This document shows positions 3,280 through 41,294 of a DNA stretch of 41,294 nt, piece after piece. The position numbers and the translations under genes are program-made. The notes under the pieces are model-generated. The model searched no databases and was not told the DNA's origin. It saw only the letters and a list, made by a program, of their open reading frames with translations. This DNA is from a virus. Taxonomy: Duplodnaviria; Heunggongvirae; Uroviricota; Caudoviricetes. The stretch is from the IMG/VR virus record IMGVR_UViG_645951847_000024; one strand, written 5' to 3'. Within the stretch, counting starts at the first letter, position 1; each line of letters begins with the position of its first letter.

Positions 3280-3390
3280 TACCGATTTGCATTTCATTTG
3301 ATACCGCTGAAAAACGCCGATACGCAACTTATTTGATACTAAATCGGCGCTTTTCTTTTGAGTTTTAGAATGAGTTTTTAAGCGCTCATT
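3280..3390. mobile_element. Candidate prophage right-end region (transposase-binding repeats?); exact terminus not resolved
   Basis: Three TTTGATAC(C/T) motifs at about 3273, 3298 and 3343, and a 13-bp inverted repeat (GAAAAACGCCGAT / ATCGGCGCTTTTC, about 3309-3357) between the host stop codon and the mom stop. No match to the canonical Mu terminal sequence. Confidence 0.3.
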
Positions 3391-4123
3391 CACTCTCTTT
3401 CAAACCAGTTTTAACTGTTTGTGGTTTTGGGTAAGGCTGGACTTTGAATAGCTTTGTGTTGAGGCGTTTTCTGGCCCTCTTGTTCAGAAACCGGATGTAA
3501 CGAAACTGTCGGAACTTATGAACACTGGCTCTGTCAATATTAGCCCTCAGATGTTCACCTCGTTGTCCGCCTCGTTTAATGGCATTCCTGCAAATCTCGT
3601 GATACCACTCGCCATCAAGTTCATAGAATATTGATTCATGGCTGCCTACATAATCAAAATTGCTTGCCTGATACACGACACCAAGACAGCCACAACGCTC
3701 ATCTGCAAACGACTGAACCCACTGTACCTGCGGATAAAGCTGCCTGATTAGCTTGAGCGCGTAACTGATTGCCCTTGATTCGGAGTTTCTCGGCATACAG
3801 TCATGCAGCCATAGCCGGTTAAGCTCCATATATTCTCGGTTCTGCGTACCCGTTACGACGCGTGCACCACTGTTTGGGTTAAGGGCGTAACCCCATTGCA
3901 TTACGCCAACAAGTTCCCGTTCTGAAAATATGCCCAGATGAAGGTAGGAGTTATTTACGAAACGGTGGCTGTAATGTTTATTGACGATGACCAGTCTGGC
4001 CAGCCAGCAACTTATTGTCTCAACCCGCAACTCACGGGAGCCATAACCAACGATATTGTCGTTATAGCGAATAAGTTCAGGCGTGCTGATGATTCGGGAT
4101 GTGACTTGCTTTCTGTTCCCCAC
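3386..4123 (-). CDS. mom: Mom-like DNA modification protein (anti-restriction)
   Basis: Last gene before the prophage right end, directly downstream of and overlapping a clear Com homologue, as in Mu com-mom. Identity by synteny only; Mom sequence not recalled. Confidence 0.55.
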
Positions 4124-4341: not shown

Positions 4342-4688
4342 GATTCGATTTGTTTAATTGATACAACAAATAGATTGAAAAGTCATCAACAATGATTCAG
4401 GGAGGTGATTATTTACTTAAAGAAAACGAAGAGTTAGGTGGTGAAAACGATCATAAAATGATCATTTTATTGACTTTTTATACAGTGAAGGTAGGATCAC
4501 GCGTATATGTAGTATGTTTCAAATCAACAGGATACTACATAAAAGTGAAACCCAGCATAGCTGGAACTATGCTGGGTCAATCTGTAAAAACTTGCATCAA
4601 TGCTTTACTTCGAGCTCGTGGCGTATCCTATGATATTCCCCGGTCTCCTGTAAAGCAGAGATGCATAAAAAGGAGATCTTTATCATGG

Positions 4689-4856
4689 ATGAAAGAGCCT
4701 GTTTGCCCTGCCTGTAAGACTCCCTTACAGCTCATCTATCGCCGTTCTCGATCTCAAAATGGCAAGACATACAAACCCAAAAATGCTTCCTGTTTCAGGA
4801 TGCTGATATGTCCTGCCTGTTCTCCCAGGAGGGAAAATACACAAAACGTGCATTAA
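4689..4856 (+). CDS. Small 4-Cys zinc-ribbon protein (55 aa), function unknown
   Basis: MKEPVCPACKTPL...CFRMLICPACSP with CPxC...CPxC spacing; AAAAGGAG Shine-Dalgarno at 4669-4676 upstream of ATG 4689. The longer 4392-4856 ORF upstream looks non-coding. Confidence 0.3.
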   Translation: MKEPVCPACKTPLQLIYRRSRSQNGKTYKPKNASCFRMLICPACSPRRENTQNVH

Positions 4857-4894
4857 CAAACTCACCCGGCAGGGAAACCTGCCGGTCGGTATTG

Positions 4895-5140
4895 TTACAT
4901 CATAGTACCGTCAGTTCCGGGCTGAACCGGCTCTGGTTGCTCTACGGGTTGAGGATCATTTTCCGTGCTGTTTTCAGCCGGAGAACGGCCAACCATTCGG
5001 GCCAGCACTTCATCAACATATGCGTCGATTTGTGCCTCAAAATCCTTGCGAACCTGCGCCTTCAGCACGCGGTTCACTTCTTCAGAATAAAGTGCCTGTT
5101 TGACAAGCTCTTCAGTAACCGTGCCTTTAATCTCTGGCAT
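4895..5140 (-). CDS. Hypothetical acidic 81-aa protein with Pro/Glu-rich C-terminal tail
   Basis: Protein-like amphipathic N-terminal half; strong SD (AAAAGGAG) 8 nt upstream of the ATG on the minus strand. Confidence 0.5.
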   Translation of the reverse strand: MPEIKGTVTEELVKQALYSEEVNRVLKAQVRKDFEAQIDAYVDEVLARMVGRSPAENSTENDPQPVEQPEPVQPGTDGTMM

Positions 5141-5175
5141 GAATATTCTCCTTTTGCAGGTATATTGCCCCGTTA

Positions 5176-5358
5176 TCAGAGCGGGGTCGGGTCGTTTGGG
5201 GATGACGGTGCCTGTGCTGTTTTACTGAGTTTTTCAGCTGCCGCATCATCAATTTTACGGCGAATATAATTTCTGATGACCTTATAACCACCGCTCACCA
5301 GATATAACGCACTGACCACAGCGCAGAAATAAAGCAGCATTGTATGAACGAATGTCAT
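5176..5358 (-). CDS. Hypothetical small membrane protein (60 aa, single N-terminal TM helix)
   Basis: Hydrophobic stretch LLYFCAVVSALYLVSGG followed by a basic region; weak SD (AAGG) upstream. Confidence 0.45.
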   Translation of the reverse strand: MTFVHTMLLYFCAVVSALYLVSGGYKVIRNYIRRKIDDAAAEKLSKTAQAPSSPNDPTPL

Positions 5359-5469: not shown

Positions 5470-5514
5470 CTCCCGCCAGCCATATCATGACCGGCGGGAT
5501 TTTTTTATTCTGTT
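5470..5514 (+). terminator. GC-rich hairpin followed by T7 run (plus-strand terminator-like), overlapping the esterase stop codon
   Basis: TCCCGCC (5471-5477) pairs with GGCGGGA (5493-5499), then TTTTTTTATT. On the minus strand the same hairpin is not followed by a T-run. Confidence 0.4.
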
Positions 5515-7544
5515 ACCGCTTTTTTCACTTCCACCACAATGCTGTCAATCAGCACCGGGTAAGTTGCATTTTTTGTGATATCCGTTACGCGGAGTTTGTC
5601 CACCGGGAAAGTTCCTACTGGTGACTGCGTCAGGGTAAACGCGGCACCATCCTGACCATCAATAACCGGAATAACCTGAAGGCTGTTATTTCCTGCAAAA
5701 CGGAAGGCCAGCGTATGCCATTCATTATCAAATGCACCAAAGGTTCCCAGTTTCTGGTTATTTGTTGCCACTTTTGCATTGTGGTACATCACATTCAGGT
5801 CTTTTGCGTCTGTCTGGATGTAGAACGATGCCAGCAGATTATTCCCTGCATCCCCTGTCAGGGTGACACCCTGCGGCAGAGAGGAAACCGGCCAGTAAAG
5901 CCCCATGACATACTGGTTTGCCACCAGGTCGCCAGGTACTTTAAAACGACAACTGATTAAACCACCATTTTTCAGCAGTTCAGCACCAGTACCGGCATCA
6001 TGATCCAGATACCAAGATGATTTACCTGTTTCCTTGGTCAGTTTCATTGCCTTACCACCTGTGCCTCCTGCATCACTGATAATTTCAGCTTTACCGCCAG
6101 CCGGCTCCCAGCCCTGGGCTTTCAGATTTCCTTCTGACTCACTGACACGATAAGACAGCAGTGTTGTGGTTACTGCTTCAGTTTCTGAAGGTGACGGCAC
6201 TGGTGCTTCAGTTTCAGAAGATGGAACATCGGCTTTTACTGTGGTTCGCCCCGCATGAGTCAGAACTGCCGTGGCCAGACGGTCGGAAATAATCCCACGA
6301 CGTGCCCATGAACTGAAATGGCTGGCCCGGTCCGCAGATGTCCAGGTGGCGGCACTGTTACGCCACGTTGAGCCGTAATAACCAATGGATTCAATATCCG
6401 GGTCTTCTGCCGGATTGTTGGTGGGTACATTCGCGTCATTTTCATCTGTCATTAATGGAACGAAATGAATGTTTTTATCTGTTTTGTTTTTGTAGCCGCC
6501 ATAGATTGCCTGGTATGCCGGTTCATTTTTCTGTTTCCAGAAATACGTGGTATCGCCACAAATCCACGGAACGCCAGCAGCACTGCCACCGGTACACTGT
6601 TCCGCCTGTTCAGCCAGGTCTGCGCGGAATTTTTCCACCATCGCCAGAAACAGCGCGGAATGCTCCGTCGGCTTCGCATCAATATCAAACTCGCCCTGCA
6701 TCCACACCACAGCAAGCAGGCGGTTTTTCGGGTTCTTCGCCAGTGCCGCTTTTGTCCGGCTGATTAAGTCCTTATACAGCGGCTTATCCACACCCCAGCG
6801 GGCTGAGTCCTCTGAAGCACCCGTGCTGTCACTGTACGTGCCGTCAGCACCCGCCGTGAATGCAGAACCACCACGGCAGCAGGGAACCAGCAGAATCCCC
6901 GCATCTGCCGGAATAAACGGCAGCAGTTTTTTGGCAATGTGAAGCCCCTGACCCACGGTGCCATATTGCCCTTTAGCCACATCCGCTTTCGGGTGATTTT
7001 TTCCACTCATATCCTGCACATCATGCAGACAGTGGTCGGCCAGAATGATGTCGTTATACTGACAGGCTTTACCTCCCGGCGTGACTGTACTGCGACGGGC
7101 TAACTGCATAATACGCGGTTCGGGGCGGTCATATGTCTCCGGCAGTGGCAGACCTTCACCGTAAGCCATACCGTTTGACTGACCAGCAAGAACCACCACG
7201 TAATACCAGGAAGGGGAGCTGGAAGCAGTTTCATTTCCTGACGGACGGGTATGTGTTTCAGCATTATCCCAGTCTGACGGTTCAGCAGTACCGGCAACAT
7301 CAGCACTTAACGGAATGACCGCACCAATACCCGCTCCGGTAATTTCCACACTCGGATCACCGGATACTGGCCTTACCCACAGGCAATCCCGTGTATTAAA
7401 ACTGATGAGACAGTCAGCAAATGTCATTCCTCCTTTTGTTTCGGCCGGAGGAAAGGGAGCCTCAAGAAATGCCGCTGTACCACCGGAAACTTTAACAGTA
7501 AAGTTTCCGGGCATTGATGATAGTTGAACCCATTTGGACGTCAT
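5505..7544 (-). CDS. Predicted sialate O-acetylesterase-like cargo protein (SGNH/SASA-type esterase with extra N- and C-terminal domains), NanS-p-like
   Basis: 679 aa; VVLAGQSNGMAYGEG resembles the GQSN catalytic-Ser block of sialic-acid-specific acetylesterases; sits between gin and com-mom, where Mu has no gene. Family from memory. Confidence 0.6.
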   Translation of the reverse strand: MTSKWVQLSSMPGNFTVKVSGGTAAFLEAPFPPAETKGGMTFADCLISFNTRDCLWVRPVSGDPSVEITGAGIGAVIPLSADVAGTAEPSDWDNAETHTRPSGNETASSSPSWYYVVVLAGQSNGMAYGEGLPLPETYDRPEPRIMQLARRSTVTPGGKACQYNDIILADHCLHDVQDMSGKNHPKADVAKGQYGTVGQGLHIAKKLLPFIPADAGILLVPCCRGGSAFTAGADGTYSDSTGASEDSARWGVDKPLYKDLISRTKAALAKNPKNRLLAVVWMQGEFDIDAKPTEHSALFLAMVEKFRADLAEQAEQCTGGSAAGVPWICGDTTYFWKQKNEPAYQAIYGGYKNKTDKNIHFVPLMTDENDANVPTNNPAEDPDIESIGYYGSTWRNSAATWTSADRASHFSSWARRGIISDRLATAVLTHAGRTTVKADVPSSETEAPVPSPSETEAVTTTLLSYRVSESEGNLKAQGWEPAGGKAEIISDAGGTGGKAMKLTKETGKSSWYLDHDAGTGAELLKNGGLISCRFKVPGDLVANQYVMGLYWPVSSLPQGVTLTGDAGNNLLASFYIQTDAKDLNVMYHNAKVATNNQKLGTFGAFDNEWHTLAFRFAGNNSLQVIPVIDGQDGAAFTLTQSPVGTFPVDKLRVTDITKNATYPVLIDSIVVEVKKAVTE

Positions 7545-7643: not shown

Positions 7644-8204
7644 TTATTTTTCCGAAACGCTCGCAGGATAATAACGATAAAGGGTTGAAAGGCCGATATC
7701 AAAAATAAGTGCCACCTGTCTTCGACTGACACCCCCGGCCAGTAAACGCCCGACCTGCTCGTATTGTTCCTGCGTGAGACGACGGGGTCTGCCGCCGGTT
7801 CGTCCCCTTTCACGGGCAGCTGCAAGACCAGCCCGTGTCCGTTCGACAATTAATTCACGCTCCATTTCTGCCAGCGCACCCATTATGTGAAAAAAGAAGC
7901 GCCCCATGGGGGTTGACGTATCAATGTTGTCAGTAAGACTACGAAAATTTATCCCCTGTTGCTGTAATTCATCTGTCAGCGCAACAAGGTGGCGCATACT
8001 GCGCCCCAGCCTGTCCAGTTTCCAGACCATCAGTGTGTCACCGGGTTTTAGTTTCTTCAGTGCCCGCTTCAGTCCCGGCCGCTGTGTCGTTTTACCACTC
8101 ATTTTATCTTCAAAAATCTGCTCACATCCTGCACATTCCAGCGCATTTCTTTGTAAACCTGTGTTCTGGTCATTTGTTGATACGCGTATATAGCCAATCA
8201 GCAT
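7644..8204 (-). CDS. gin: Serine DNA invertase (Gin/Hin/Pin/Cin family)
   Basis: MLIGYIRVSTNDQNTGLQRNALECAGCEQIFEDK...GRFFFHIMGALAEMERELI is near-identical in pattern to Mu Gin; catalytic Ser in RVSTNDQ; adjacent to an inverted tail-fibre segment. Confidence 0.93.
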   Translation of the reverse strand: MLIGYIRVSTNDQNTGLQRNALECAGCEQIFEDKMSGKTTQRPGLKRALKKLKPGDTLMVWKLDRLGRSMRHLVALTDELQQQGINFRSLTDNIDTSTPMGRFFFHIMGALAEMERELIVERTRAGLAAARERGRTGGRPRRLTQEQYEQVGRLLAGGVSRRQVALIFDIGLSTLYRYYPASVSEK

Positions 8205-30999: not shown

Positions 31000-31500
31000 T
31001 CAGACTTTCGGCAAGTCGTAGCGACATAACCATTCATCCGCCGAACGGCGGGCCTCAAGGCCGGGGAGTTTCACCCCCTTTGAATAAATCCAGCGGATAT
31101 ACTGCTTACAGGACGCGGGCATCTGCCCGGCATTGATCAGGCGCAGAAGCGTGGAGTTGCGAAAGTTCGTTTCACCGGCCCAGAAGATCCACGAAGCCAG
31201 CGCCACCGTCTGACCACGGGTAAGCGGCACCTGAACACGCCGATCAATGGCCGCAAAGGCCCATTTCATGTCCTTTTCCAGTAGTTCCAGGCATTCTTCA
31301 TCTGTCAGGGTCATACCCGGTTTCACATCCGGGCCGGTATGGCCGTAACAGATGGTGGGTGTACCGGTGGGATCGATATACGTGGAGTTTTCTTTCCCTT
31401 CCCAGTAACCGGTGTAATGCGTGGCAATCGTGAACGTCCCGGCACCGGCCAGAACAAGGGCAATCAGCTTTTTACGCAGTGGTGCGGGGAGTTTTGGCAT
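31000..31500 (-). CDS. lys: Endolysin, T4-lysozyme-like (GH24) with N-terminal signal-anchor-release (SAR) domain
   Basis: Catalytic-triad context YWEGKENSTYIDPTGTPTICYGHT; N-terminal hydrophobic KKLIALVLAGAGTFTIA. Confidence 0.85.
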   Translation of the reverse strand: MPKLPAPLRKKLIALVLAGAGTFTIATHYTGYWEGKENSTYIDPTGTPTICYGHTGPDVKPGMTLTDEECLELLEKDMKWAFAAIDRRVQVPLTRGQTVALASWIFWAGETNFRNSTLLRLINAGQMPASCKQYIRWIYSKGVKLPGLEARRSADEWLCRYDLPKV

Positions 31501-31571
31501 TGTTACGCTGTCTCATGATGTTCTCTGAGTCAGCGTAACGGTGAAGGAGAGGCGGCAGGCTTTGCGGAATA

Positions 31572-31997
31572 TCAGAAAAGTGGCGGTTGCGTTCTTACCA
31601 GATGCAGACGGCGCTGTTCGCGTATGACGGTATAAATCTGGGTTTCTGACATCCGGTAATGGCGGCGAAGGGATTCAATTTTCTCGCCCCGGTCCCAGCG
31701 CGAAAATATCTCATTGTTTCGCAGCTCGGCAAAGAGAGATTCCCCGACCGGCAGGTAATAACCCCGTCCGCCCATATAGGCGGCCTGAGCCGCAGCCACC
31801 TTGCGTGCCAGTTTACCGGCCAGTACCGGCTCAATCCCCTGACGCTGAAGTTCTGCGCCGGTGACTTCAACCAGTTCTGACAGGGTCCGCGGCCAGTTCT
31901 TTTTGAGAACATCATCAGGGATGTCATCAAGGCGGTCGATAAGGGCGTGCAGTTGCTCACTGTCACCACCAAACATGCTCATCTGAGTTTCTGCCAT
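31572..31997 (-). CDS. Mor/C-family transcriptional activator (middle or late gene activator)
   Basis: C-terminal HTH region ...SLRRHYRMSETQIYTVIREQRRL parallels Mu Mor (...TRYGVTFNTVYKAIRRMRRL); only one family member in the window. Confidence 0.75.
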   Translation of the reverse strand: MAETQMSMFGGDSEQLHALIDRLDDIPDDVLKKNWPRTLSELVEVTGAELQRQGIEPVLAGKLARKVAAAQAAYMGGRGYYLPVGESLFAELRNNEIFSRWDRGEKIESLRRHYRMSETQIYTVIREQRRLHLVRTQPPLF

Positions 31998-32027
31998 ATC
32001 AGCCTCCGGTTCTCGCGTTCCCGGTAA

Positions 32028-32062
32028 GTTTAAAATAAAAATCCCGCGTTGTGGCGGGATTT
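32028..32062 (-). terminator. Rho-independent terminator between gemA-like and mor/C-like genes
   Basis: Minus-strand AAATCCCGC-CACAAC-GCGGGATTT (9-bp stem) followed by TTATTTTAAA. Confidence 0.5.
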
Positions 32063-32066
32063 GGAG

Positions 32067-32576
32067 TTAACGGGGAAGTGATTTTTCATACTGCCTGCAA
32101 ACGGCGTCATACCCCATCAGCGTGCGTTCGGGCATTCCCATCGCGGCCAGCATTTTGCGGCGGTGCCATCGCTTGAGACGCTCCAGCACATCTGAGGCCA
32201 GGGCGGGGTGTTGCTCCAGCCACTGCCAGTTTGCCACACCTTCGCCGCCGTTCTGCGCGGCCGTCTGCGATTTCACCCAGCGGTTAAGGGCGGTTTCCGC
32301 ACCATCGGTGATAAAGCCCTGCCGGTGCATCACCTTCCAGATGGCGCGAATTTTGGCGGTCACCGTACCCGGTTTTAAGGCCCGGTTAACCGGGTTCTGA
32401 CGCACTTTAAAACCGCGTTTTTTGAAAACATCCAGCACGCGGGATAACTCATCCGGTGACATATCCCGGCAGCTGGTTTTGCCGGTAGCTGCCAGCAGCG
32501 CGGATGTATAAGTCTCATCATCCAGGGCAAGCTCGCGCTTTGCCACATGAATGGCGGATATCAGTTTTCCTCTCAT
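32067..32576 (-). CDS. GemA-like early regulatory protein (Mu gp16-like)
   Basis: 169 aa, position immediately upstream of mor/C; family from memory. Confidence 0.55.
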   Translation of the reverse strand: MRGKLISAIHVAKRELALDDETYTSALLAATGKTSCRDMSPDELSRVLDVFKKRGFKVRQNPVNRALKPGTVTAKIRAIWKVMHRQGFITDGAETALNRWVKSQTAAQNGGEGVANWQWLEQHPALASDVLERLKRWHRRKMLAAMGMPERTLMGYDAVCRQYEKSLPR

Positions 32577-32869
32577 ACCGTATTTACCTTTTTACGGACA
32601 TGGAAAGCCTTTTCTGCCTCATCCCACCGGGCATGGTGTGTTGGCGGAATAATCATTATGTGCCAGCCATCTCTGCTTGTTATTCGGCAGAAAAATTCAC
32701 CGTTATATAACACAATGGCCTGCTGAATGAGCGCATCAGCCGCCCGTTCAACCGGATGTCTTTTATCAAAAAAGCAGATGATTTTTCGACATAACCACCG
32801 GGTAATAACAAATGCGCCGAAAAAGGATGTGATATATAAGCACCAGAACAACAGAGAACTATTGTCCAT
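32573..32869 (-). CDS. Hypothetical small membrane protein (early region)
   Basis: N-terminal TM segment LLFWCLYITSFFGAFVITRWL; AT-rich gene. Confidence 0.4.
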   Translation of the reverse strand: MDNSSLLFWCLYITSFFGAFVITRWLCRKIICFFDKRHPVERAADALIQQAIVLYNGEFFCRITSRDGWHIMIIPPTHHARWDEAEKAFHVRKKVNTV

Positions 32870-33056
32870 TATCTTTCTCCTTATTCACTCTTCTGCGGCA
32901 TTCGGCACAGTCATCAGGGCTTTCAAATGTATCCGGCTCGCGATTATGAGCCAGATATAACCACCGTCCACATATACTGATATTTTCGCCTGTTTTAAAA
33001 AAATGATGCTTCCTGGCCATTAGTGGCCGCGCCCATCCAGCGGGTAGACTATTCAT
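32859..33056 (-). CDS. Hypothetical small Cys-containing protein (early region)
   Basis: 65 aa with ICG...CAEC; AT-rich. Confidence 0.35.
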   Translation of the reverse strand: MNSLPAGWARPLMARKHHFFKTGENISICGRWLYLAHNREPDTFESPDDCAECRRRVNKEKDNGQ

Positions 33057-33384
33057 TTGCTTTATCCTCCATGCTGGACAGAATCATATGTATTAATGTC
33101 GGGCGTGGAGATATACGCATTTCATTAAGCGTCTGAAGGGCAGCAACAGCTGCCTGTTTATCGGTGCCTTTGGCAATTTCAGCAAGAGAATGCACAATCC
33201 ATAATGGGCTTAACGCTACGGCTGAATGCAGAATCATGTCATCCATAATAATTTCTGGCATATCCCGTTTGTCACATTCTTTATCCATAAAAGAAACGAT
33301 TTTTTCTGCATCTTCCGGTTTCATGCCTCCGGCGATGAGAATTTTACGATATTCATAAGACGATCTTAATTCAATACTCATCAT
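33049..33384 (-). CDS. Hypothetical protein (early region)
   Basis: 111 aa, protein-like composition; AT-rich. Confidence 0.4.
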   Translation of the reverse strand: MMSIELRSSYEYRKILIAGGMKPEDAEKIVSFMDKECDKRDMPEIIMDDMILHSAVALSPLWIVHSLAEIAKGTDKQAAVAALQTLNEMRISPRPTLIHMILSSMEDKANE

Positions 33385-33396
33385 TCACCTGCCTGT

Positions 33397-33789
33397 TTAA
33401 TCAGTTTCCAGTGCTTTGCTACGGGCAACAGCCTCACACTCAAAAAATACCGACTCCGGCACACGCTCCTTTAATTCACGAACAAGAAAATCATTAACGA
33501 GTTCATGACGTCTTATATTTCTTTCCTTTTCCTCCTGGCGCAATACAGCAAGGCGGTATTCAACAGTCCGGCGTTGTTTCTGAAAGACAGCCAGTGCTTT
33601 TCTGGCAGAGTTACGCAATGTATCATCGCCACAGGGTTCGTATTCAAGCTGAAATTTAATCTCTTCAATGGTTTCTTTTATTTTTGCCAGCAAGCTAAGA
33701 CAGTCGCTGATTGTCTTCAGTTTTTCATTATCAATATAACTTCTCACGCATTCACCTCCCGTCATTCCGGTAAAGCTGAAATATGGCAC
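33397..33789 (-). CDS. Hypothetical coiled-coil protein (early region)
   Basis: 130 aa, Glu/Lys/Arg-rich helical; start uncertain. Confidence 0.4.
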   Translation of the reverse strand: MPYFSFTGMTGGECVRSYIDNEKLKTISDCLSLLAKIKETIEEIKFQLEYEPCGDDTLRNSARKALAVFQKQRRTVEYRLAVLRQEEKERNIRRHELVNDFLVRELKERVPESVFFECEAVARSKALETD

Positions 33790-34073
33790 CAGTGCGTCAC
33801 CTGTCCGTCCTCATCTTCAAGGCAGGCTCCGGTTTCTTCATCAATAAAAAAGCCTTCATACCCCATATGGCCGATGCGCAGTTCCTGTTGGTCACCATAC
33901 TGAACAATCAGCACGACAGCCTCCATATCAGGCGGGAAAGCATCATTCAGTGAATGCCAGGGATAACCGCGCAAATCCCCGAAATAAACACCGGTCAGCG
34001 TTCCGCCACAGACCGGCATTCCGACGGCACACACAAGGGGTTCATCTGATTCAACAAATAATGTCGTTATCAT
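33762..34073 (-). CDS. Hypothetical acidic protein (early region)
   Basis: 103 aa; overlaps neighbours by a few bp, consistent with an operon. Confidence 0.4.
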   Translation of the reverse strand: MITTLFVESDEPLVCAVGMPVCGGTLTGVYFGDLRGYPWHSLNDAFPPDMEAVVLIVQYGDQQELRIGHMGYEGFFIDEETGACLEDEDGQVTHWCHISALPE

Positions 34074-34621
34074 GGCATTAATTCCCGTAATACAACATCT
34101 TCGGCAGTCCGACGACGGTGATAAATAAAACTCACCGTGCCCTCGGATAATTCAAATTTCTCGCCGATTTCCCTAAAGGTAAGACGCCGTGGTGATTCAG
34201 CATCCCGTAATTCACGAATAAGACGAACATCATCGTCAGGTATGCGGGTGAAGGGCAGCAACTCTCCGTATTTTTTCATGCTTACGCCAATATATCGCGC
34301 CCGATTGTGGACAGAATCCCGGTCTCGCCCCAGATATTCTCCTATTTGCTTACCGGTCATTGTTCTGGCATTTTTTCGGATAAATTTATCTTCATCAGGT
34401 TTAAATCTGAGGCGTTTGCATTTGAGCAACTCCGGGTAAGTACCGCGTAATAAAACAATCCGGTTATGTACACCCCAGAAACTTCTTTTTATCCTGACAG
34501 CAATATCCTTAACCGGGGTGGATGGATAAAGCGCAATCAGCAGCGCATCTTCTTCAGGTGTCCATGCGCGAACATGAGCGGGTGCACGGCCTTTTCTCCC
34601 CATGGGTTGTAATATCATCAT
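34070..34621 (-). CDS. Hypothetical DNA-binding protein with three HTH-like repeats
   Basis: Three HTH-like segments (VKDIAVRIKRSFWGVHNRIVLL, MTGKQIGEYLGRDRDSVHNRARYIGV, LTFREIGEKFELSEGTVSFIYHRRR). Confidence 0.45.
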   Translation of the reverse strand: MMILQPMGRKGRAPAHVRAWTPEEDALLIALYPSTPVKDIAVRIKRSFWGVHNRIVLLRGTYPELLKCKRLRFKPDEDKFIRKNARTMTGKQIGEYLGRDRDSVHNRARYIGVSMKKYGELLPFTRIPDDDVRLIRELRDAESPRRLTFREIGEKFELSEGTVSFIYHRRRTAEDVVLRELMP

Positions 34622-34624
34622 GCA

Positions 34625-35140
34625 TCACCCCCTGACTCGCTTTTCAGCAGCATAAAACTCATCAGACAGAATTTCGGTCATTTTCTGATTTGCGGGTTTT
34701 ACGCCGCACTCAAGGTAAATCACATCGTCAACGCAGAACCACTTCACAGGGCCAAACATGATTGCCGAGAAATCAATACCCAGCCAGAACAACAGTGCAT
34801 CGGTTCTGGCATACGTGACGGGCGAATATTCACGCCACAGACTGTTAAGTTCGTCAGAGGCAACGCGCAGGGCTTTGGGAATACGTGATGTGCGCGGTGT
34901 GCAGCTCCAGCCATTCGACGCAGTCGGTTTTCGCCATAAGTCGCGATGAAAAGGATATTTGTCATCCATAAAGCGCAGCCCTTTAAAACAAAAGCCACTG
35001 ATACCGGATACAAATACCGACCGGCACGCAACATTCAGCACGGCCTCAAGGCGTTTTGCCTCATCCTTAACTTTCTGGCAGTCCTGCTGATATTTTTGCC
35101 ACGCGGCCAGCGCGGAAGGGTTTGATGTTTTAAAGAACAT
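34625..35140 (-). CDS. Hypothetical protein (early region)
   Basis: 171 aa; tightly packed with neighbours. Confidence 0.45.
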   Translation of the reverse strand: MFFKTSNPSALAAWQKYQQDCQKVKDEAKRLEAVLNVACRSVFVSGISGFCFKGLRFMDDKYPFHRDLWRKPTASNGWSCTPRTSRIPKALRVASDELNSLWREYSPVTYARTDALLFWLGIDFSAIMFGPVKWFCVDDVIYLECGVKPANQKMTEILSDEFYAAEKRVRG

Positions 35141-35673
35141 TACGCCACCTCCGCAGATATCCCGGCAGGCGCGGCCGTCCGGTCAACAATCAGGTAACGC
35201 AGAACGCGCGAGGTGATATTCCAGCCGCTTAAACCGCAGATAATGACACCCAGGCGTATGTCGATATACGCCATCACAAACTGGGGCACGCCTTCTTTCA
35301 TGGCCTGCTCATCAACTTCAGCCACCACATAAACGGTTTCACAGGTCAGAACGCCCTGAGCAAATTCCCACGCCATTGACGGAATATCATGCCCCTCAAT
35401 CCACGGCAGGGATTTTCTGAAGCTGCACCACTGAACATCATCAGCCGCACCTTCCTGGCTGCATTTGCGACGAACCGGCTGCACCGGGCGGGGACGCGGA
35501 ATATCATAAAAACCGTTACATTCCGTCAGCACCCCGGCATCGACCGCATCACGCAGAAAATAAACCATCGAGGATGGCGGCATATTCATTTTTTCAGCCA
35601 GAATGCCGCAGGTCAGACGCCCGTAAATACTCAGCCAGTTTTTAACCCCTTCAAGCACTTTTGCACCAATCAT
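35140..35673 (-). CDS. Hypothetical protein with N-terminal winged-helix-like segment (early region)
   Basis: 177 aa; MVYFLRDAVDAGVL-type helix near N-terminus. Confidence 0.45.
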   Translation of the reverse strand: MIGAKVLEGVKNWLSIYGRLTCGILAEKMNMPPSSMVYFLRDAVDAGVLTECNGFYDIPRPRPVQPVRRKCSQEGAADDVQWCSFRKSLPWIEGHDIPSMAWEFAQGVLTCETVYVVAEVDEQAMKEGVPQFVMAYIDIRLGVIICGLSGWNITSRVLRYLIVDRTAAPAGISAEVA

Positions 35674-35676
35674 GAA

Positions 35677-36219
35677 TTATTCCTCCGTCAGCGCCACATA
35701 TTCAGAATGTTTAATCTCCTGGCATTCTTCAGGAATACCCCCTTTTATTTCCCTGCCATAAGCGCCTACTTTAAACACCACGCACAGGGCATCACGGGAG
35801 AGCGACGGGGTCCACCAGGAGTCCATGTTAAACATGGAGGGGATTCTCATTACCCCCAGCTTTTCACAGAGCCAGACAAGGAAATCAGGACGCTTTCTTA
35901 ACTCGCGTTCAGCGGCTTCAATCATTGCGGCAATCGCCGGTCCTTCAGGGCATGACTCATCAGGTCTGGCAATAAAGCACGGTCCGTCCCCGATAAAAGC
36001 CACATCATCGCGCTTACGCCAGCCCGCAGGCAGAGCACCAGAAAAATAAAACTCACTGATTACGTCCATGGCAAACGGCTTTAAGCGCAATCCGGCAGCG
36101 CCTGTATTTTTCAGTAATGCCCGAAGAATACTGTTGCGTAGCGGTAAAACAGTCTGTTGATATTTGGTGAAATATTTATTTGTCTGCACACGGTCTAATT
36201 TGAAATAAAAATATGCCAT
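35677..36219 (-). CDS. Hypothetical protein (early region, downstream of gam)
   Basis: 180 aa. Confidence 0.45.
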   Translation of the reverse strand: MAYFYFKLDRVQTNKYFTKYQQTVLPLRNSILRALLKNTGAAGLRLKPFAMDVISEFYFSGALPAGWRKRDDVAFIGDGPCFIARPDESCPEGPAIAAMIEAAERELRKRPDFLVWLCEKLGVMRIPSMFNMDSWWTPSLSRDALCVVFKVGAYGREIKGGIPEECQEIKHSEYVALTEE

Positions 36220-36316
36220 ATATCCTGTTCCTTATTTTCAGTTTACAGGCGCAGGCAGTCCCCTGACGCGAGCGCCATACTTAAAACGATGTGATATTTA
36301 AAGATTTAATGCGGTG

Positions 36317-36847
36317 TTATTTATTCAGTCCGGCGTCCTGTTCAAAAGGCTCGACATAAAAACTTTCAGCGCCTTTATTCACCTTAATACCGGCAATGCC
36401 TTTCACTGCATCCGGCTCCGCTAGGACCGCTTCCTTGTTCACTTCCTCTTTCGTGCGGATGAATCGCTCAAGCCCCATACGGCGCAGCATTTCAATCACA
36501 CCTTCCACATCACGGCTGACGCTGCATGATGGATTTCCCAGCCGCCATGACACTGTTCCGGTGGTCAGATTGGCTGTTTTGGTTTTGCCGCCGTTCGTCA
36601 GCTCATCGCGGTTGGTTTTGCACCAGTCCTGAATCCCCTTAAAAAGCACTTTGATTTCTTTTTTAAGGTTTTCAATCTGCGGCGTATAACGGGCGGTGAT
36701 TTCTGCCACTTCATCATTCATCGCCGTTTCCAGCCGTAGCGCCTCTCGCTGAATATCGCCCAGGGTACGGATATCGCGGCTGACTTCTTCGCGGGTCTGC
36801 GGTGCAGCCTCGGCTGCGGCCTTTAATTTTGTAACACGTTTAGCCAT
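36317..36847 (-). CDS. gam: Gam, host-nuclease (RecBCD) inhibitor, Mu Gam-like DNA end-binding protein
   Basis: 176 aa; position and size as Mu Gam; recognised from memory of the family. Confidence 0.8.
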   Translation of the reverse strand: MAKRVTKLKAAAEAAPQTREEVSRDIRTLGDIQREALRLETAMNDEVAEITARYTPQIENLKKEIKVLFKGIQDWCKTNRDELTNGGKTKTANLTTGTVSWRLGNPSCSVSRDVEGVIEMLRRMGLERFIRTKEEVNKEAVLAEPDAVKGIAGIKVNKGAESFYVEPFEQDAGLNK

Positions 36848-36858
36848 TTTGTTTTTCC

Positions 36859-37152
36859 TTATTGCAGTGTGCCTGATGCTTTATGCACGCGGTGGCGTTT
36901 AATGATGGCATCCGCCCCAAAAGCCTGTACAGATGCCTGAAATTCCGCTGAGAGAAACTGAATAATTTCAGGACTGTGATACTGGAGAATACTTGCATAA
37001 ACGCCACAGAGTGACGTCGGCCTGTTATTCGTATCACGTTCTGTTTTTACATCCACACCAATCTTTTCATGCACTTCAACACAGTCATTGCCTGCCGGTT
37101 TTTCGTCATGCGAAACATGCTTAAATTCAAAAATAACGCGTACTTTGCTCAT
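36859..37152 (-). CDS. Hypothetical protein, tandem paralogue 2 (MSKVRVIFEFKHV...)
   Basis: Start at internal ATG; N-terminus shares MSKV-R-IFE-K with the upstream gene. Confidence 0.45.
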   Translation of the reverse strand: MSKVRVIFEFKHVSHDEKPAGNDCVEVHEKIGVDVKTERDTNNRPTSLCGVYASILQYHSPEIIQFLSAEFQASVQAFGADAIIKRHRVHKASGTLQ

Positions 37153-37156
37153 GGAA

Positions 37157-37429
37157 TTACCCCTGCTGATTAAATTCATTACCTTTAATAACCCCGGAAC
37201 GCATGCTCATATCTTTCATGAGCGCACTGGCTTTCATTGCCACAAGTTCAGCAAAGTCTCTGCTTTCCGCGAGCATAACCACCCCAAAAATCATGGCGGG
37301 TCCATCACCTTTCTGCTTTATCCCGGTTGAACGTATGTCCAGACTTACCCCCATGCGCACTGTTCCATCAGCGTTTTTATGGATAACGTGCTCCTTGTAT
37401 TCGAAAATAATGCGTACGACTTTACTCAT
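37157..37429 (-). CDS. Hypothetical protein, tandem paralogue 1 (MSKVVRIIFEYKEHV...)
   Basis: 90 aa; N-terminal 13 residues nearly identical to the downstream gene, remainder divergent. Confidence 0.45.
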   Translation of the reverse strand: MSKVVRIIFEYKEHVIHKNADGTVRMGVSLDIRSTGIKQKGDGPAMIFGVVMLAESRDFAELVAMKASALMKDMSMRSGVIKGNEFNQQG

Positions 37430-37707
37430 CCTCTGGTCCTCGTTCTGTTTGGATAACTGACCCGGCGTCTGACCTCACGGCAGAACCGAATCATGGCATT
37501 AAAGGCTTCTTCCTCCGTCACCGCTTCCGGTATCCCCGGAACCAGTAACTGCTCCTGTTCATCACGTCCATGACGCGCCATAACCTCAATCACATGCCGT
37601 ACCGTGGCAGGCTTTCCGGCAACTATCGGCAATGCACCTTCCGGCAGGACGTAACCAAACTCAATAAGACCACTCGACCACGCCCATGCAATGAGATTTT
37701 TTTTCAC
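37426..37707 (-). CDS. Hypothetical protein (early region)
   Basis: 93 aa. Confidence 0.4.
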   Translation of the reverse strand: MKKNLIAWAWSSGLIEFGYVLPEGALPIVAGKPATVRHVIEVMARHGRDEQEQLLVPGIPEAVTEEEAFNAMIRFCREVRRRVSYPNRTRTRG

Positions 37708-37708
37708 C

Positions 37709-37975
37709 TCACACCTCCCAGTAAACCGTGCAGCCGCTGATGCGGGTGGCCTTCACACGGCGGCGCAGGCCGTTGGTCTGTATGGTGATTTCAATTTCAC
37801 CGGTTCCCTGCACGTTGCCTACCGGCGGCGTGGTTTTCAGTGCAAAACGTTGCGGATAGCGCTTACTGCGTTCCAGTACCGCACCGGCAAGTTCGGTCAG
37901 ACGGCGCGCGCTGTTCAGGGAGTCGAATAAATTCATTTTGTTACCGCAGGATTGCATATTCATATAACACCTCAT
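37709..37975 (-). CDS. Hypothetical protein (early region)
   Basis: 88 aa; start uncertain. Confidence 0.4.
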   Translation of the reverse strand: MRCYMNMQSCGNKMNLFDSLNSARRLTELAGAVLERSKRYPQRFALKTTPPVGNVQGTGEIEITIQTNGLRRRVKATRISGCTVYWEV

Positions 37976-38203
37976 TTAGCTGACTTGTTTCGCACCAACA
38001 GAACGGCATATTCCGCTGTAAACGTCTGTCGCACCTTCGCGATCAAGTCCGGCAGATATCACCATTCGTGTGCGGTCATTAAATTCAAAAAGTAAATCGC
38101 CACATTCTTTATTTTCGGCCAGTGAAATCACCTTCACGTTATCGAAATTAACCAGGTAAAAGCGTCCGTAAATATCAGGAATATTAAATACCGCCATAAT
38201 CAC
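37976..38203 (-). CDS. Small protein immediately after B; Kil-like by position and size only
   Basis: 75 aa directly downstream of the B gene, where Mu encodes the 74-aa Kil; no sequence recall to confirm. Confidence 0.35.
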   Translation of the reverse strand: MIMAVFNIPDIYGRFYLVNFDNVKVISLAENKECGDLLFEFNDRTRMVISAGLDREGATDVYSGICRSVGAKQVS

Positions 38204-39132
38204 ACCTGTGAGAGTAATTCAGGGTTGGTATAAACCTCTTTAAAGGCCGCATTAATATGTTTTTCTGTCAGCGCCGCGCCTTCACCGCTGGCGGTGAGCC
38301 ACGCCTGGTTAAGCGTATGTGTCAGAACGCGTAACGCTCCCGGCTTTTCAGCGATAGCCTGCATGACGGCCAGCTCGGCCTCACCACTGATCCCCCACGC
38401 CCTGGCAATGGCCAGCACATCCGCCTTTTTGGCCTTGCGAAGTTGTTTTGTACGGGCAAGACGGCTGAACAGGCGCGATAAATCATCAAAGGCGCGGCGT
38501 CCACCTTTAAACAATCCGCGCGGGTTACCAATAAGCACCATCCCGATCCCCGTGGCGTCCTGAATTGCCCGGAGTTGCTCCAGACCGTCAATACCCAGAT
38601 GATCCGCCTCATCCACAATCACCAGTCCACGCGTTCCCATCAGGCGACGGCGGATGGCGCGGGATAATGCCCCTTTGTTCGCGCGGGTGTAATCAATCCC
38701 CAGCGCATCGGCCAGCTCCAGCAGACACTCCGTGACGCTGGAGTGCGCGGGTGACAGGGTGATCATCCAGGTGTTTGGTTGCTCCTGGCAGTAATTACGG
38801 GCAGTGGCCGTTTTACCCACACCCGGTACGCCCACAATAACGTTAATACAGCCCATCAGACGAACCGCCTGAAACAGTGCGCGCAGCTCCTGGACTGTCT
38901 GCGTTTCCACAAACTGCGGCGGTTCCGGCAGTGCGCTTTGTTTATTCCAGTTTTCATACCAGGAACGCAGGGAAGCAGCCACAGCGGCGTTATCGCCTTT
39001 ATATTTCCCCTTGCGGAAAGCCGATAATGTGCCGTCGGAAATTCCCGCCTCTCTGGCGATGGCATACTGCGTCAGTACGCCGCCATCAATAAGTTCATCA
39101 ATGGTCTTGATTACATCGTTAATATCAGTCAT
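38200..39132 (-). CDS. B: Transposition ATPase B (MuB-like AAA+ target DNA activator)
   Basis: 310 aa; N-terminal HTH (VLTQYAIAREAGISDGTLS), Walker A GVPGVGKT, Walker B LVIVDEADHL; follows the transposase gene. Confidence 0.9.
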   Translation of the reverse strand: MTDINDVIKTIDELIDGGVLTQYAIAREAGISDGTLSAFRKGKYKGDNAAVAASLRSWYENWNKQSALPEPPQFVETQTVQELRALFQAVRLMGCINVIVGVPGVGKTATARNYCQEQPNTWMITLSPAHSSVTECLLELADALGIDYTRANKGALSRAIRRRLMGTRGLVIVDEADHLGIDGLEQLRAIQDATGIGMVLIGNPRGLFKGGRRAFDDLSRLFSRLARTKQLRKAKKADVLAIARAWGISGEAELAVMQAIAEKPGALRVLTHTLNQAWLTASGEGAALTEKHINAAFKEVYTNPELLSQV

Positions 39133-39203: not shown

Positions 39204-41294
39204 TCAGGCCAGCGGGTCATTTTCTTTTAATTTCGCTTCCAGCAACTGCAATCCCCGCTGGAAATTACGCTCGTATTCTTCATCAGGTTCATCGTCAGCG
39301 ACCGGTTGCTGAACGGTCACCGTATTACCCACAGGGCGGTATATGTTTTCCAGCCAGGGCTCCTGCGGCTTGTGCTCCAGCACGTTGACAACCTCATCCT
39401 CGGCATCACGGATTTTTTCCTCTGCGCGTTTACGCATGCCTTTAAGGCGTTGCTGCTGTTTGTAGTATTCCGCGCTGACCGGGAAGGCTTCGCGTTTATT
39501 GCCGTCCCATACCGCCTCGCAAATCACGCTGCCATCCAGGCGACGTACGGTAATTCGTTCGGCATCATGAATGTCATAGCTGATAAGCACCTTACGGCCA
39601 TGCTCGTCACGCAGCTCGGGCGCGTAGTAAATATTATTCAGCCAGCGTATTTCACAGCGTCTTACAGGGCGTTCCACCATCGGCCGGAACATATCCCGCA
39701 GCTCAACATCGGACAGCCATTCAATTTCCGTGTCCTCTTCCGCCAGGCGTTTTTTTCTGAACTCCGCCGGGCTGTAATGCTTGCCGTTCGGCTTCACCGG
39801 TAATTCATCGTGCGGCCGGTTGTTGTACCACTCAACACCGTCACGAATGGCATCAATCAGTTCAGACCAGGACGGTAAATCACGCATCGCTGACTGCTGC
39901 CGGGCGTTCAGCCGTTTGCCCTGTTGCAGGGCAGTAAATGCCGAGCGTAAATCGCGGTTGGTTTTGCGTAACGTCTCGCGATCTGCACCTTTCCCGAAAT
40001 AGGTGCGGTATTTACGGGCTATGCGCATCGGTAATGTGCGGTTAAGCCGTTCGATAATGCCTCGTCCCTGCGGATTACCGGCAATCCCGGTCGGGTGATT
40101 AATCCCCAGTCGCGGCAGTATCCCCACAACCTCCTTATCCAGGATGTCGGCGGTTTCCCCGGAGCCGTTATCCGAGTAATACAGAAACGGTTTGCCGTGA
40201 TGGCGAATGCCGTGCTGTATGGCACCGGCTACGGCGAAAACATTTTCAGCCAGGTCAAGGCTCCAGCCCACCACAAAGCGCGTGCCACCGTCGATAACAA
40301 AGGTCACTTCCGGTGCAAATGGCCGACCGTGAACCGGGTGTGCGCATTTCAGCTTCATGCCGTGACCGTCACCAATCCAGACATAATTCACCGGCATTCT
40401 GGACCAGTCGCGGCGCGTGAATCCCTCAAGCTGGCGGTATTCACTGCCGGTCACCCGGCCTTTTTGTTTCACCACTTCCGGCAGTTTCTTCATTGCGCGG
40501 CGAATGGTGTCATAAGACGGCATGATATCGAGCATATAAGGCTCATCAGCGTGCCGGTGCTGCCATTCAGCGACAAAATCCTCGTAAGCCTCGGTCATTG
40601 GTCGGCCGTTTGACTGGCGATACTGCGCCAGAAATTCGGGCAGCCAGTTAATATCTTCGGCTTTTATTTCCTGGCGCTTACCCGGTGCCAGTAAAAGCAG
40701 GCGTTCAGCGGCGTTCTGCGCCTTGTTAAAGGCCGCAATCCAGCGTTTCAGCGTGATTTCACTTAACGCGCGGCTGTTTCCCTTTTTGGCGTTCGCCGTC
40801 TCAACCATTGCCACAATGCGCTCGTCCAGCTGCGAACGTGCCAGGTTGTCAACGATAAACCGGATAGCCTTCGCACAGCTGAAACCAGGTTGTTGCGCGA
40901 CTTTCAGAACTTCGCTGACGATCGCGATTCGTGCATCAGCCACCTGGCGCTGGTTTTCAGTCAGGGCATTAAGGCGTTCGACCATCAGTTGTGGTGATCC
41001 GCGATATGCCTCCACCGCATCAACCACGGCAGGCGAGCGTCTGGCCTTTGTCACCACTGGAGCCGGTGATTCATCGACTTTTTGAGTCATCAGTTGCAGG
41101 GCGTAGCGTTCACGTAATGCCTGCTGCGTCACTTCAGGTAAACAGTCGATGCTGTATTCAGTTGCTTTAGAGCCTGAGCGACGACGGGAACAACAGCTTT
41201 TCCCTTGTACGTAACGTTGTAATGCCTGGCGAATACCTTTTGTTGTAGCAGGCATTCCGGGCGCGCCAATCAGTTCTTTTGCAATGACATACAT
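39204..41294 (-). CDS. A: DDE transposase A (MuA-like); start at or near window end
   Basis: 696 aa upstream of B; large multi-domain protein of the size and position of Mu A. Confidence 0.85.
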   Translation of the reverse strand: MYVIAKELIGAPGMPATTKGIRQALQRYVQGKSCCSRRRSGSKATEYSIDCLPEVTQQALRERYALQLMTQKVDESPAPVVTKARRSPAVVDAVEAYRGSPQLMVERLNALTENQRQVADARIAIVSEVLKVAQQPGFSCAKAIRFIVDNLARSQLDERIVAMVETANAKKGNSRALSEITLKRWIAAFNKAQNAAERLLLLAPGKRQEIKAEDINWLPEFLAQYRQSNGRPMTEAYEDFVAEWQHRHADEPYMLDIMPSYDTIRRAMKKLPEVVKQKGRVTGSEYRQLEGFTRRDWSRMPVNYVWIGDGHGMKLKCAHPVHGRPFAPEVTFVIDGGTRFVVGWSLDLAENVFAVAGAIQHGIRHHGKPFLYYSDNGSGETADILDKEVVGILPRLGINHPTGIAGNPQGRGIIERLNRTLPMRIARKYRTYFGKGADRETLRKTNRDLRSAFTALQQGKRLNARQQSAMRDLPSWSELIDAIRDGVEWYNNRPHDELPVKPNGKHYSPAEFRKKRLAEEDTEIEWLSDVELRDMFRPMVERPVRRCEIRWLNNIYYAPELRDEHGRKVLISYDIHDAERITVRRLDGSVICEAVWDGNKREAFPVSAEYYKQQQRLKGMRKRAEEKIRDAEDEVVNVLEHKPQEPWLENIYRPVGNTVTVQQPVADDEPDEEYERNFQRGLQLLEAKLKENDPLA

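Follow-up and report, generated by a model that had tools for sequence, protein, structure and literature searches.

What is encoded between the Gam-family and GemA-family genes of the Mu-like prophage in IMG/VR virus record IMGVR_UViG_645951847_000024? In this record, a stretch of 41,294 nucleotides (nt) that was analysed whole and is called the window below, nine minus-strand open reading frames (ORFs), here o1 to o9, fill positions 32573-36219 exactly. Mu is a founding model of transposition, and most of its semi-essential early genes have been without a function for about 40 years. A first-pass annotation had described the nine ORFs as an AT-rich block of uncharacterised early genes and as the likeliest site in the window for an undescribed small system, possibly linked to anti-defence. 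We read them, with a probability of roughly 60%, as genes from the distal part of the semi-essential early operon in a Mu-like prophage of the Sp18 type, arranged in three layers and including a gp11 protein that would work with a partner of the DUF5420 fold.

The tight packing holds on inspection, with inter-ORF gaps of -28 to +12 nt across the block, and RefSeq calls the same nine genes in Escherichia coli O157:H7 genomes that are 100% identical here, labelling one of them 'DNA-binding protein' and the other eight 'hypothetical protein'. The nine ORFs are real genes, because their ratio of nonsynonymous to synonymous substitution rates (dN/dS) is 0-0.35 for all nine against related alleles, as expected under purifying selection. 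All nine also match PHROG families (E 1e-32 to 1e-104), and these are without a known function except that of o4. Scans against Pfam, NCBIfam and PADLOC left seven of the nine without a match; the exceptions are o2, with the domain Gp11_C, and o4, with weak helix-turn-helix (HTH) matches. The earlier remark that no function could be recognised is therefore right for seven ORFs and needs amending for two, Gp11_C itself being uncharacterised and o4 recognisably an HTH DNA-binding protein.

gp11 and its DUF5420- and gp12-type neighbours

The first layer would be a conserved module of four elements.

Leader element: 36242..36324, minus strand, about 80 nt, non-coding, from the gam stop codon towards o1
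o1: 35677-36219, minus strand, 180 amino acids (aa), divergent member of the DUF5420 superfamily, in variable slot A
o2: 35140-35673, minus strand, 177 aa, homolog of Mu gp11 (Mu_11, formerly E10-E12)
o3: 34625-35140, minus strand, 171 aa, homolog of Mu gp12 (Mu_12, formerly E13)

The protein o2 shares 67% identity with Mu_11 along its whole length. It matches phrog_1949 at 2e-104 and Pfam Gp11_C (PF25754) at 8e-40, the latter over residues 90-167 and the whole profile (positions 1-78 of 78), with 135.5 bits against a cut-off of 27. A winged helix or HTH in the N-terminal 80 or so residues was considered and is unsupported, the only matches there being to MIF at E of at least 0.35. The neighbouring o3 shares 54% identity with Mu_12 across 169 aa (E 4e-67) and belongs to the PF26885 cluster, as judged from its homologs, 46 of 46 of which carry a precomputed PF26885 assignment. 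Clear homology of all nine ORFs to characterised Mu housekeeping proteins was not found: only o2 and o3 have Mu counterparts, and these are themselves uncharacterised.

The assignment of o1 is less direct. It does not match Pfam DUF5420 (PF17457) even at E 10. However, an allele found in relatives, o1b, which is 23% identical to o1, passes the DUF5420 threshold with 50.3 bits against a cut-off of 26. The sequence of o1 alone finds a Salmonella 'DUF5420 family protein' (E 2e-22, 38% identity, 100% coverage), and a profile built from o1 and its database matches reaches PF17457-bearing proteins at E 1e-35 to 1e-60. An exhaustive hidden Markov model (HMM) search for the superfamily gave 124 cluster representatives, nearly all of them single-domain proteins of 180-200 aa. 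The protein o1 shares with them its length, the pattern of secondary structure, an N-terminal YFK, an FxxW helix and the C-terminal IKHSEYVALTEE; it differs in having lost a basic PDRRxKEGK loop. No paper mentioning DUF5420 was found, and the function of the family is likewise unreported. In the superfamily alignment (A5; residues 165-180 of o1) almost every member ends in ...EIK(K/H)SEF(I/V)ALTEE, even at about 20% overall identity, while the o3/gp12 branch has EILSDEFYA instead, followed by a basic tail. The conservation of this free C-terminal tail across the DUF5420 superfamily suggests a docking motif.

The two families flanking gp11 appear to be related to each other. When the diverse 124-cluster superfamily alignment (7.4 effective sequences, Neff) was used, hhalign gave a co-linear, full-length alignment of o1 residues 4-180 with o3 residues 1-168 (P 8e-5, score 31.3). 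One hundred shuffled controls averaged 12.1 +/- 2.3, none of them reaching 31.3, and the reversed control scored 13.7. The aligned features are the N-terminal (Y/F)FK, a P(D/R) loop, a central helix and a C-terminal EI..(S/D)E(F/Y).A motif, and the AlphaFold2 (AF2) models of o1 and o3 have the same order of secondary-structure elements. The DUF5420 and gp12 families are treated here as remote paralogs, a relationship that is new; the likeness of the models is one of secondary-structure order and not of superposition. In this reading the two share a single alpha/beta fold without a solved relative. Searches of the PDB by sequence, with o1 to o4 as single sequences and with family profiles of o1 and o3, gave chance matches only.

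The gene order around gp11 follows a simple rule. Among 62 gp11 genes flanked on either side by 700 nt or more, the order is DUF5420-gp11-gp12 in 43, gp11-gp12 in 11 and DUF5420-gp11 in 8, and none stands alone; gp11 always adjoins at least one DUF5420- or gp12-type gene (62/62), which is also new here. Mu is of the gp11-gp12 type and SfMu of the DUF5420-gp11 type with gp12 frameshifted. Near-identical Mu-type gp11 proteins occur with either partner, which amounts to a natural swap. In SfMu (L083, NC_027382), an unannotated gap of 515 nt at 4443-4968 is the gp12 gene, 95% identical to Mu_12 and frameshifted after codon 19. The splitting of this gene alongside the gain of a DUF5420 gene fits redundancy of the paralogs, although it could be a sequencing error. 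One enterobacterial locus (L097, 5473-6602) has two tandem DUF5420-superfamily genes before gp11.

Within the module the genes are separated by 3-nt gaps and a 1-nt overlap, the stop codon of o2 overlapping the start of o3, and this spacing suggests coupled translation. It is proposed that gp11 and a DUF5420-fold partner form a non-enzymatic complex that would bind DNA or an enterobacterial host protein, and that would help lytic growth without being essential for it. We infer at least partial redundancy of o1 and o3, which would explain why the region resisted genetics and could account for uninformative single deletions.

The leader element and the reach of the module

The gam-o1 spacer of 97 nt is the only real spacer in the region, and it aligns with its equivalents in Mu and SfMu. 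The leader element that it contains has an AT-rich 5' half followed by the core TTTTAA(G/T)TATGGCGC..CGTCAGGGGACTGC..GCGCCTG, and a hairpin is possible. With nhmmer, exactly one copy was found in each of 73 gp11-module sequences, including Mu (6318-6404) and SfMu, and none in 39 distant Mu-like loci or in the remote DUF5420 loci. The element is retained before the module where a DUF3164 gene replaces gam. This concerns an enterobacterial Mu-like lineage (L088, L092-L094 and L096-L099, including Citrobacter braakii ATCC 51113) that has no Gam homolog at the gam position and keeps both the leader element and the DUF5420-gp11-gp12 module; at L094, the only one of these loci that was checked, the ORF at the gam position (6273-6911) is a DUF3164 protein (Pfam 8e-77).

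In the aligned copies, 90.7% of cells in the hairpin form pairs, whereas slid controls reach 29-58%. In the outer stem, which is longer in two lineages, there is one compensatory change, from C-G to U-A, and the inner stem has G.U variants. The element matches no Rfam family and no consensus of a promoter or a terminator; folded as a single sequence, it has an unremarkable z-score of -0.06. A wider Rfam 15 scan of positions 31000-38500 gave no covariance-model match up to E = 1. The element may serve as an operator or as a hairpin for mRNA processing or stability, or be nothing more than a recombination joint.

The last of these, a joint for the exchange of mosaic modules with no role as regulatory RNA or operator, is a possibility that we hold to be real but the minor one. 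It would account for the differing genes found upstream (gam, DUF3164) and downstream (o1, o1b, the SfMu-type DUF5420 gene, gp11) of the same element, and the element is conserved about as much as the flanking coding DNA. At L095 the element occurs twice (4482-4557 and 5105-5177): a weak second copy lies right after gam, and an additional gene separates the two, which looks like the insertion of a cassette at this point. Against this, the pairing of the stems survives the compensatory change and the G.U variants, and the near-invariance of the loop CGTCAGGGGACTGC in four lineages suggests that the sequence of the element is itself under selection.

How far can the function of the module be taken? 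The leader element, a DUF5420-fold protein (o1 and/or o3) and gp11 might together make up a self-contained, unrecognised early module of enterobacterial Mu-type phages, with its own cis-regulatory hairpin, two interchangeable paralogous partners and a host-directed function; we put this forward tentatively. Such a function would be, for example, to block a host nuclease or immune sensor together with Gam, or to boost replicative transposition (the old, never-cloned 'arm' phenotype). A more specific version, in which o1-o2-o3 would be a counter-defence or DNA-end-protection adjunct to Gam and the DUF5420-fold proteins decoys or inhibitors of an Enterobacteriaceae-specific nuclease or immune sensor, seems rather unlikely. 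An anti-defence role of the module or of the cassettes is possible and finds no positive support. The link to anti-defence drawn in the first-pass annotation found no support for any ORF, whether from a PADLOC match, a known anti-defence fold or the literature. PADLOC defence models gave no match for eight ORFs beyond a chance-level one for o7 (E 0.035), and for o4 only a chance-level HTH (E about 0.01). Literature searches on DUF5420, PF17457, PF25754, PF26885, the Mu locus tags and anti-defence in Mu-like phages returned nothing relevant. PDB fold, defence-system match, RNA family and publication alike assign no function to the nine ORFs.

For the operon as a whole, it is proposed that all nine genes are expressed within minutes of induction or infection, on one transcript with ner-A-B-gam that would end after gemA. 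Consensus scans inside the block found 6 promoter-like sites where 7.1 are expected and 9 terminator-like sites where 6.8 are expected, that is, no enrichment of either.

Several points weigh against the reading of the block as an early operon centred on gp11 and its partner. Co-transcription is read from spacing and consensus scans, and the partnership of gp11 with a DUF5420 protein from adjacency. The 62 gp11 loci are interrelated; about 10 are contigs retrieved a second time, and 39 loci came in through DUF5420 itself. Remote DUF5420 genes occur in other phages without a Gp11_C neighbour, so the fold is independent of gp11; a genome-wide scan for such distant contexts yielded one locus only, as confirmation relied on the divergent o1 sequence. 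The o1/o3 comparison has an hhalign probability of 61%, not above 90%, and the signal appears only with the deeper alignment: tests with a shallow one were negative (probability 0.1%, 13 of 200 shuffles reaching the score, reversed control higher). The covariation in the hairpin is thin, with few independent events, and the leader element, 73% identical to that of Mu, is conserved at about the level of coding sequence (65% for gam, 70% for o2). The term 'non-enzymatic' is an argument from absence, and the conserved polar motifs YFK, PDRRxKEGK and, at the C-terminus, EIKKSEFIALTEE might just as well belong to an active site. Finally, neither experiment nor homology gives any of the nine ORFs a function. 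If the module reading fails, the region would be no more than the kind of mosaic accessory segment that is typical of temperate phages.

o4, the cassettes o5-o9 and mosaicism

The remaining six ORFs would form the second layer (o4) and the third (o5-o9).

o4: 34070-34621, minus strand, 183 aa, isoelectric point (pI) 10.2, tandem helix-turn-helix repeats
o5: 33762-34073, minus strand, 103 aa, acidic, pI 4.1, phrog_6925 (2e-52)
o6: 33397-33789, or 33397-33747 (116 aa) with the RefSeq start, minus strand, phrog_6158 (4e-56) from residue 15 of the longer ORF
o7: 33049-33384, minus strand, 111 aa, homolog of SfMu ORF14, phrog_1988 (6e-45)
o8: 32859-33056, minus strand, 65 aa, invariant His-Cys3, phrog_2358 (5e-34)
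o9: 32573-32869, minus strand, 98 aa, one predicted N-terminal transmembrane helix, phrog_17269 (7e-32)

The protein o4, which is the one that RefSeq names 'DNA-binding protein', matches phrog_323 ('transcriptional regulator, D5-like') at 6e-58. Each of its repeats has sub-threshold Pfam HTH matches (Sigma70_r4 at 4.5e-5, HTH_11, Myb), the internal repeats are significant (R1-R2 and R2-R3, with 3 and 10 of 1000 shuffles reaching the score, respectively), and residues 66-166 resemble Mu E8/Mu_9 (E 3.5e-8). It is predicted to be a multi-HTH DNA-binding regulator, and would act as such in the proposed operon. Relatives carry two o4 alleles (about 72% and >90% identity), and some lineages are without o4.

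The third layer is proposed to consist of small AT-rich accessory genes, independently exchangeable and acquired from diverse phages, each of which would most likely encode a single small binder for host takeover, exclusion or counter-defence, with o9 as a membrane protein. Among deposited phages o5 is found only in Mu-like inserts of two Stx phages and is restricted to this lineage; it is common beside gp12 or o4 in enterobacterial relatives. Two candidate identities of o5 were rejected, Gp11_C-like since 55 of 100 shuffles reach the score, and DUF551-like for want of a Pfam match. By eye, o6 is a putative helical or coiled-coil protein and o7 a putative helical one. The former (GC content at third codon positions, GC3, 0.37) has counterparts of about 40% identity among the hypothetical proteins of unrelated phages (Aeromonas AsXd-1, Escherichia Fraca) and is present in some relatives only, always with o5 and o7; the latter (GC3 0.36) shares 34% identity with SfMu gp14 and with proteins of Mu-like phages of Yersinia.

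The smallest protein, o8, is probably a zinc-binding protein, to judge from residues H18, C29, C50 and C53, which are invariant across homologs from Klebsiella, Pantoea and lytic Pseudomonas PB1-like phages. The family occurs in 197 phage records, and the closest relatives of o8, all in phages unrelated to this one, include about 170 lytic PB1-like Pseudomonas phages. A relationship to the prophage repressor (E 0.003) was rejected, the matched stretch being a charged linker without cysteines. The hydropathy of o9 (Kyte-Doolittle, 19-residue window) has its maximum of 1.82 at residue 5; the gene is lineage-restricted, with no other phage homologs and two alleles (97% and 49% identity), and in relatives its slot can hold an unrelated membrane protein of about 60 aa (tm60).

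The base composition varies along the block. With a GC content of 0.473, the block as a whole lies below the 0.570 of 10-32 kb, where the structural and lysis genes are, in agreement with the first-pass annotation. The block is AT-rich in its overall composition and not as a uniform unit: o5-o9 jointly have a GC content of 0.444, among the lowest 2% of 1.5-kb windows, while o2 stands at 0.536, and the drop sits mainly in o4 and o6-o9 (GC3 0.36-0.46). About 7% of windows of equal size have a GC content as low as that of the block or lower, and these are located at the tail-fibre/mom end.

The comparison set comprised about 120 related loci, of which 80 were fetched via Gam, and all ORFs of the window were mapped onto those 80. 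All 28 close relatives with both gam and gemA have o2-o3-o4. The slot between gam and o2 holds o1 in 16 of the 28, o1b in 7 and nothing in 5. The slot after o4 holds, among close relatives, [tm60 o7 o8 o9], [o5 zn46 hel100], [o5 o6 o7], [o5 o9] or the full o5-o9, where zn46, a zinc-ribbon peptide, and hel100, a helical protein, are homologs of Mu_13 and Mu_14. In 39 distant Mu-like loci, with Gam about 55% identical, none of the nine ORFs is present. The block is a mosaic and not a single system, because relatives carry differing subsets of it and the distant loci none.

That all nine genes form one undescribed system is accordingly the least probable of the explanations considered, a very long shot. 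It would suit the tight packing on a single strand and the one apparent transcription unit. It is contradicted by the many subsets in relatives, where o1 is present, replaced or absent and o4 is missing in some lineages, by Mu, which holds only o2 and o3, and by differences in GC3 and in closest relatives among the genes. The first-pass suggestion of a small system in the block thus fails for the whole, whose sub-blocks are independent in relatives; a smaller conserved unit does lie within it, o1-o2-o3 with the leader element upstream, which the sequence by itself could not reveal.

It has also to be considered that some of o5-o9, and especially o9, serve the lysogen by superinfection exclusion or defence, at low-level prophage expression. 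For Mu lysogens, low-level transcription from the early promoter over the semi-essential genes has been reported, and it was suggested that some of these may benefit the host (PMC3820752). The slot is held now by one small membrane protein, now by another (o9, tm60), and the cassettes are AT-rich and seemingly horizontally acquired. Nevertheless this explanation is improbable, given that PADLOC finds no match, that no dedicated promoter signal rises above chance, and that o8 has homologs in strictly lytic PB1-like phages, to which a benefit for the lysogen cannot apply.

The mosaic slot is a catalogue of small early proteins, reasonable candidates for host-takeover or counter-defence screens, which includes a probable zinc-binding family common to lytic Pseudomonas phages.

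Prophage setting and comparison with known systems

The block lies in a Mu-like transposable prophage, whose main early landmarks are as follows.

Transposase A: 39204-41294, minus strand of the window
B: 38200-39132, minus strand, followed by five small genes before gam
Gam-family gene: 36317-36847, minus strand, Pfam 1.5e-41
GemA-family gene: 32067-32576, minus strand, Pfam 3e-30
Terminator-like hairpin: 32039..32062, minus strand, 9-bp stem with 5 G-C pairs, then TTATTTT

The hairpin lies 5 nt downstream of the gemA stop codon and is probably the end of the early transcription unit. Beyond gemA follow, in gene order, one Mor/C-type activator, lysis genes and structural genes. The activator (31572-31997, minus strand) is the sole Mor/C-family member in the window, 39% identical to Mu C (E 2e-25) against 26% to Mor, and a lysozyme gene comes directly after it. 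A single C-like activator suggests a simpler transcription cascade than the early-middle-late scheme of Mu. Just upstream of gam lie two small minus-strand genes, e5 (36859-37179) and e4 (37157-37429), which are weak paralogs (33% over 55 aa, E 0.02). The dN/dS of e5, 0.51, is the highest measured here, and relatives hold alleles about 60% and >90% identical to it.

The far end of the prophage carries a Gin-type invertase, the tail-fibre segment and Mom. The genes of this right end (3386-4123, minus; 4392-5269, plus; 5505-7544, minus; 7644-8204, minus) include Mom (Pfam 4e-77), a 679-aa SASA-esterase/DUF6645 protein and the Gin-type invertase, as well as two overlapping plus-strand ORFs of about 150 aa without a Pfam or PADLOC match. 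The right end is as AT-rich as the nine-ORF block.

The block is 100% identical in prophages of many E. coli O157:H7 genomes and was found in 233 of 5,426 complete E. coli genomes. In O157 Sakai the Mu-like prophage is Sp18, which has been predicted to be intact (PMC2669165). Beside the mom end, positions 1-3279 (plus strand) of the window encode a partial Druantia type III DruE helicase (PADLOC DruE3, 1156 bits); the match ends at profile position 1684 of 2055, and the host sequence stops near position 3260. In an O157:H7 genome without the insertion, druE is uninterrupted, with 2,104 codons, and extends 1,137 nt further, preceded by a gene of the STY4851/ECs_5259 family. Because of this comparison, the Mu-like prophage is taken to have transposed into druE in the genome of the window and to have truncated the defence gene. 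Other genomes have the same prophage at other sites, and the exact druE junction is not in any complete genome of the collection searched.

How does the region compare with systems already described? Phage morons and accessory regions, for example the early genes of Pseudomonas transposable phages, are small, AT-rich, polymorphic in presence and absence, and expressed early. For o5-o9 the likeness is a functional lead only; none of these shows recognisable homology to a characterised moron or anti-defence protein.

A closer relative is SfMu, which is in essence Mu carrying two extra cassettes, one with an o1-type gene placed after gam and one with an o7-type gene. SfMu ORF11, which belongs to DUF5420 and shares 40% identity with o1, takes up the slot after gam just as o1 does, and ORF14 shares 34% identity with o7. 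Neither has a Mu homolog according to the published description, ORF14 having none in Mu or D108 (PMC4406740). Otherwise SfMu differs from the prophage in being near-identical to Mu, in its interrupted gp12 frame and in the absence of o4-o6, o8 and o9.

The comparison with the semi-essential early (SEE) region of Mu itself (kil, gam, Mu_11-Mu_14, Mu_54, gemA) supports the description of the block as uncharacterised early genes of a Mu-like phage. Both regions occupy the same place between gam and gemA in a long early operon, both carry Mu_11 and Mu_12 orthologs (67% and 54% identity) behind the same leader element after gam, and the genes are uncharacterised in both, the function of the Mu semi-essential genes being called 'largely unknown' (PMC3820752). 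The differences lie in the content around this core. Mu has five genes where the prophage has nine, and is without o1, o4 and o5-o9; its sole relative of o4 is a shorter, E8-like one that lies upstream of gam. The prophage in turn has no homologs of Mu_13, Mu_14 and Mu_54, although some close relatives have Mu_13 and Mu_14. The problem of the old Mu genes is narrowed by three points: the DUF5420 and gp12 families appear to have one fold, gp11 is never without one of them, and the trio goes with a conserved leader element. Together these predict redundancy and give a testable handle on the Mu genes. In kind, the region is ordinary, and is best described as a semi-essential early region of the Mu type, in which a DNA-binding regulator and a cassette slot follow a conserved module.

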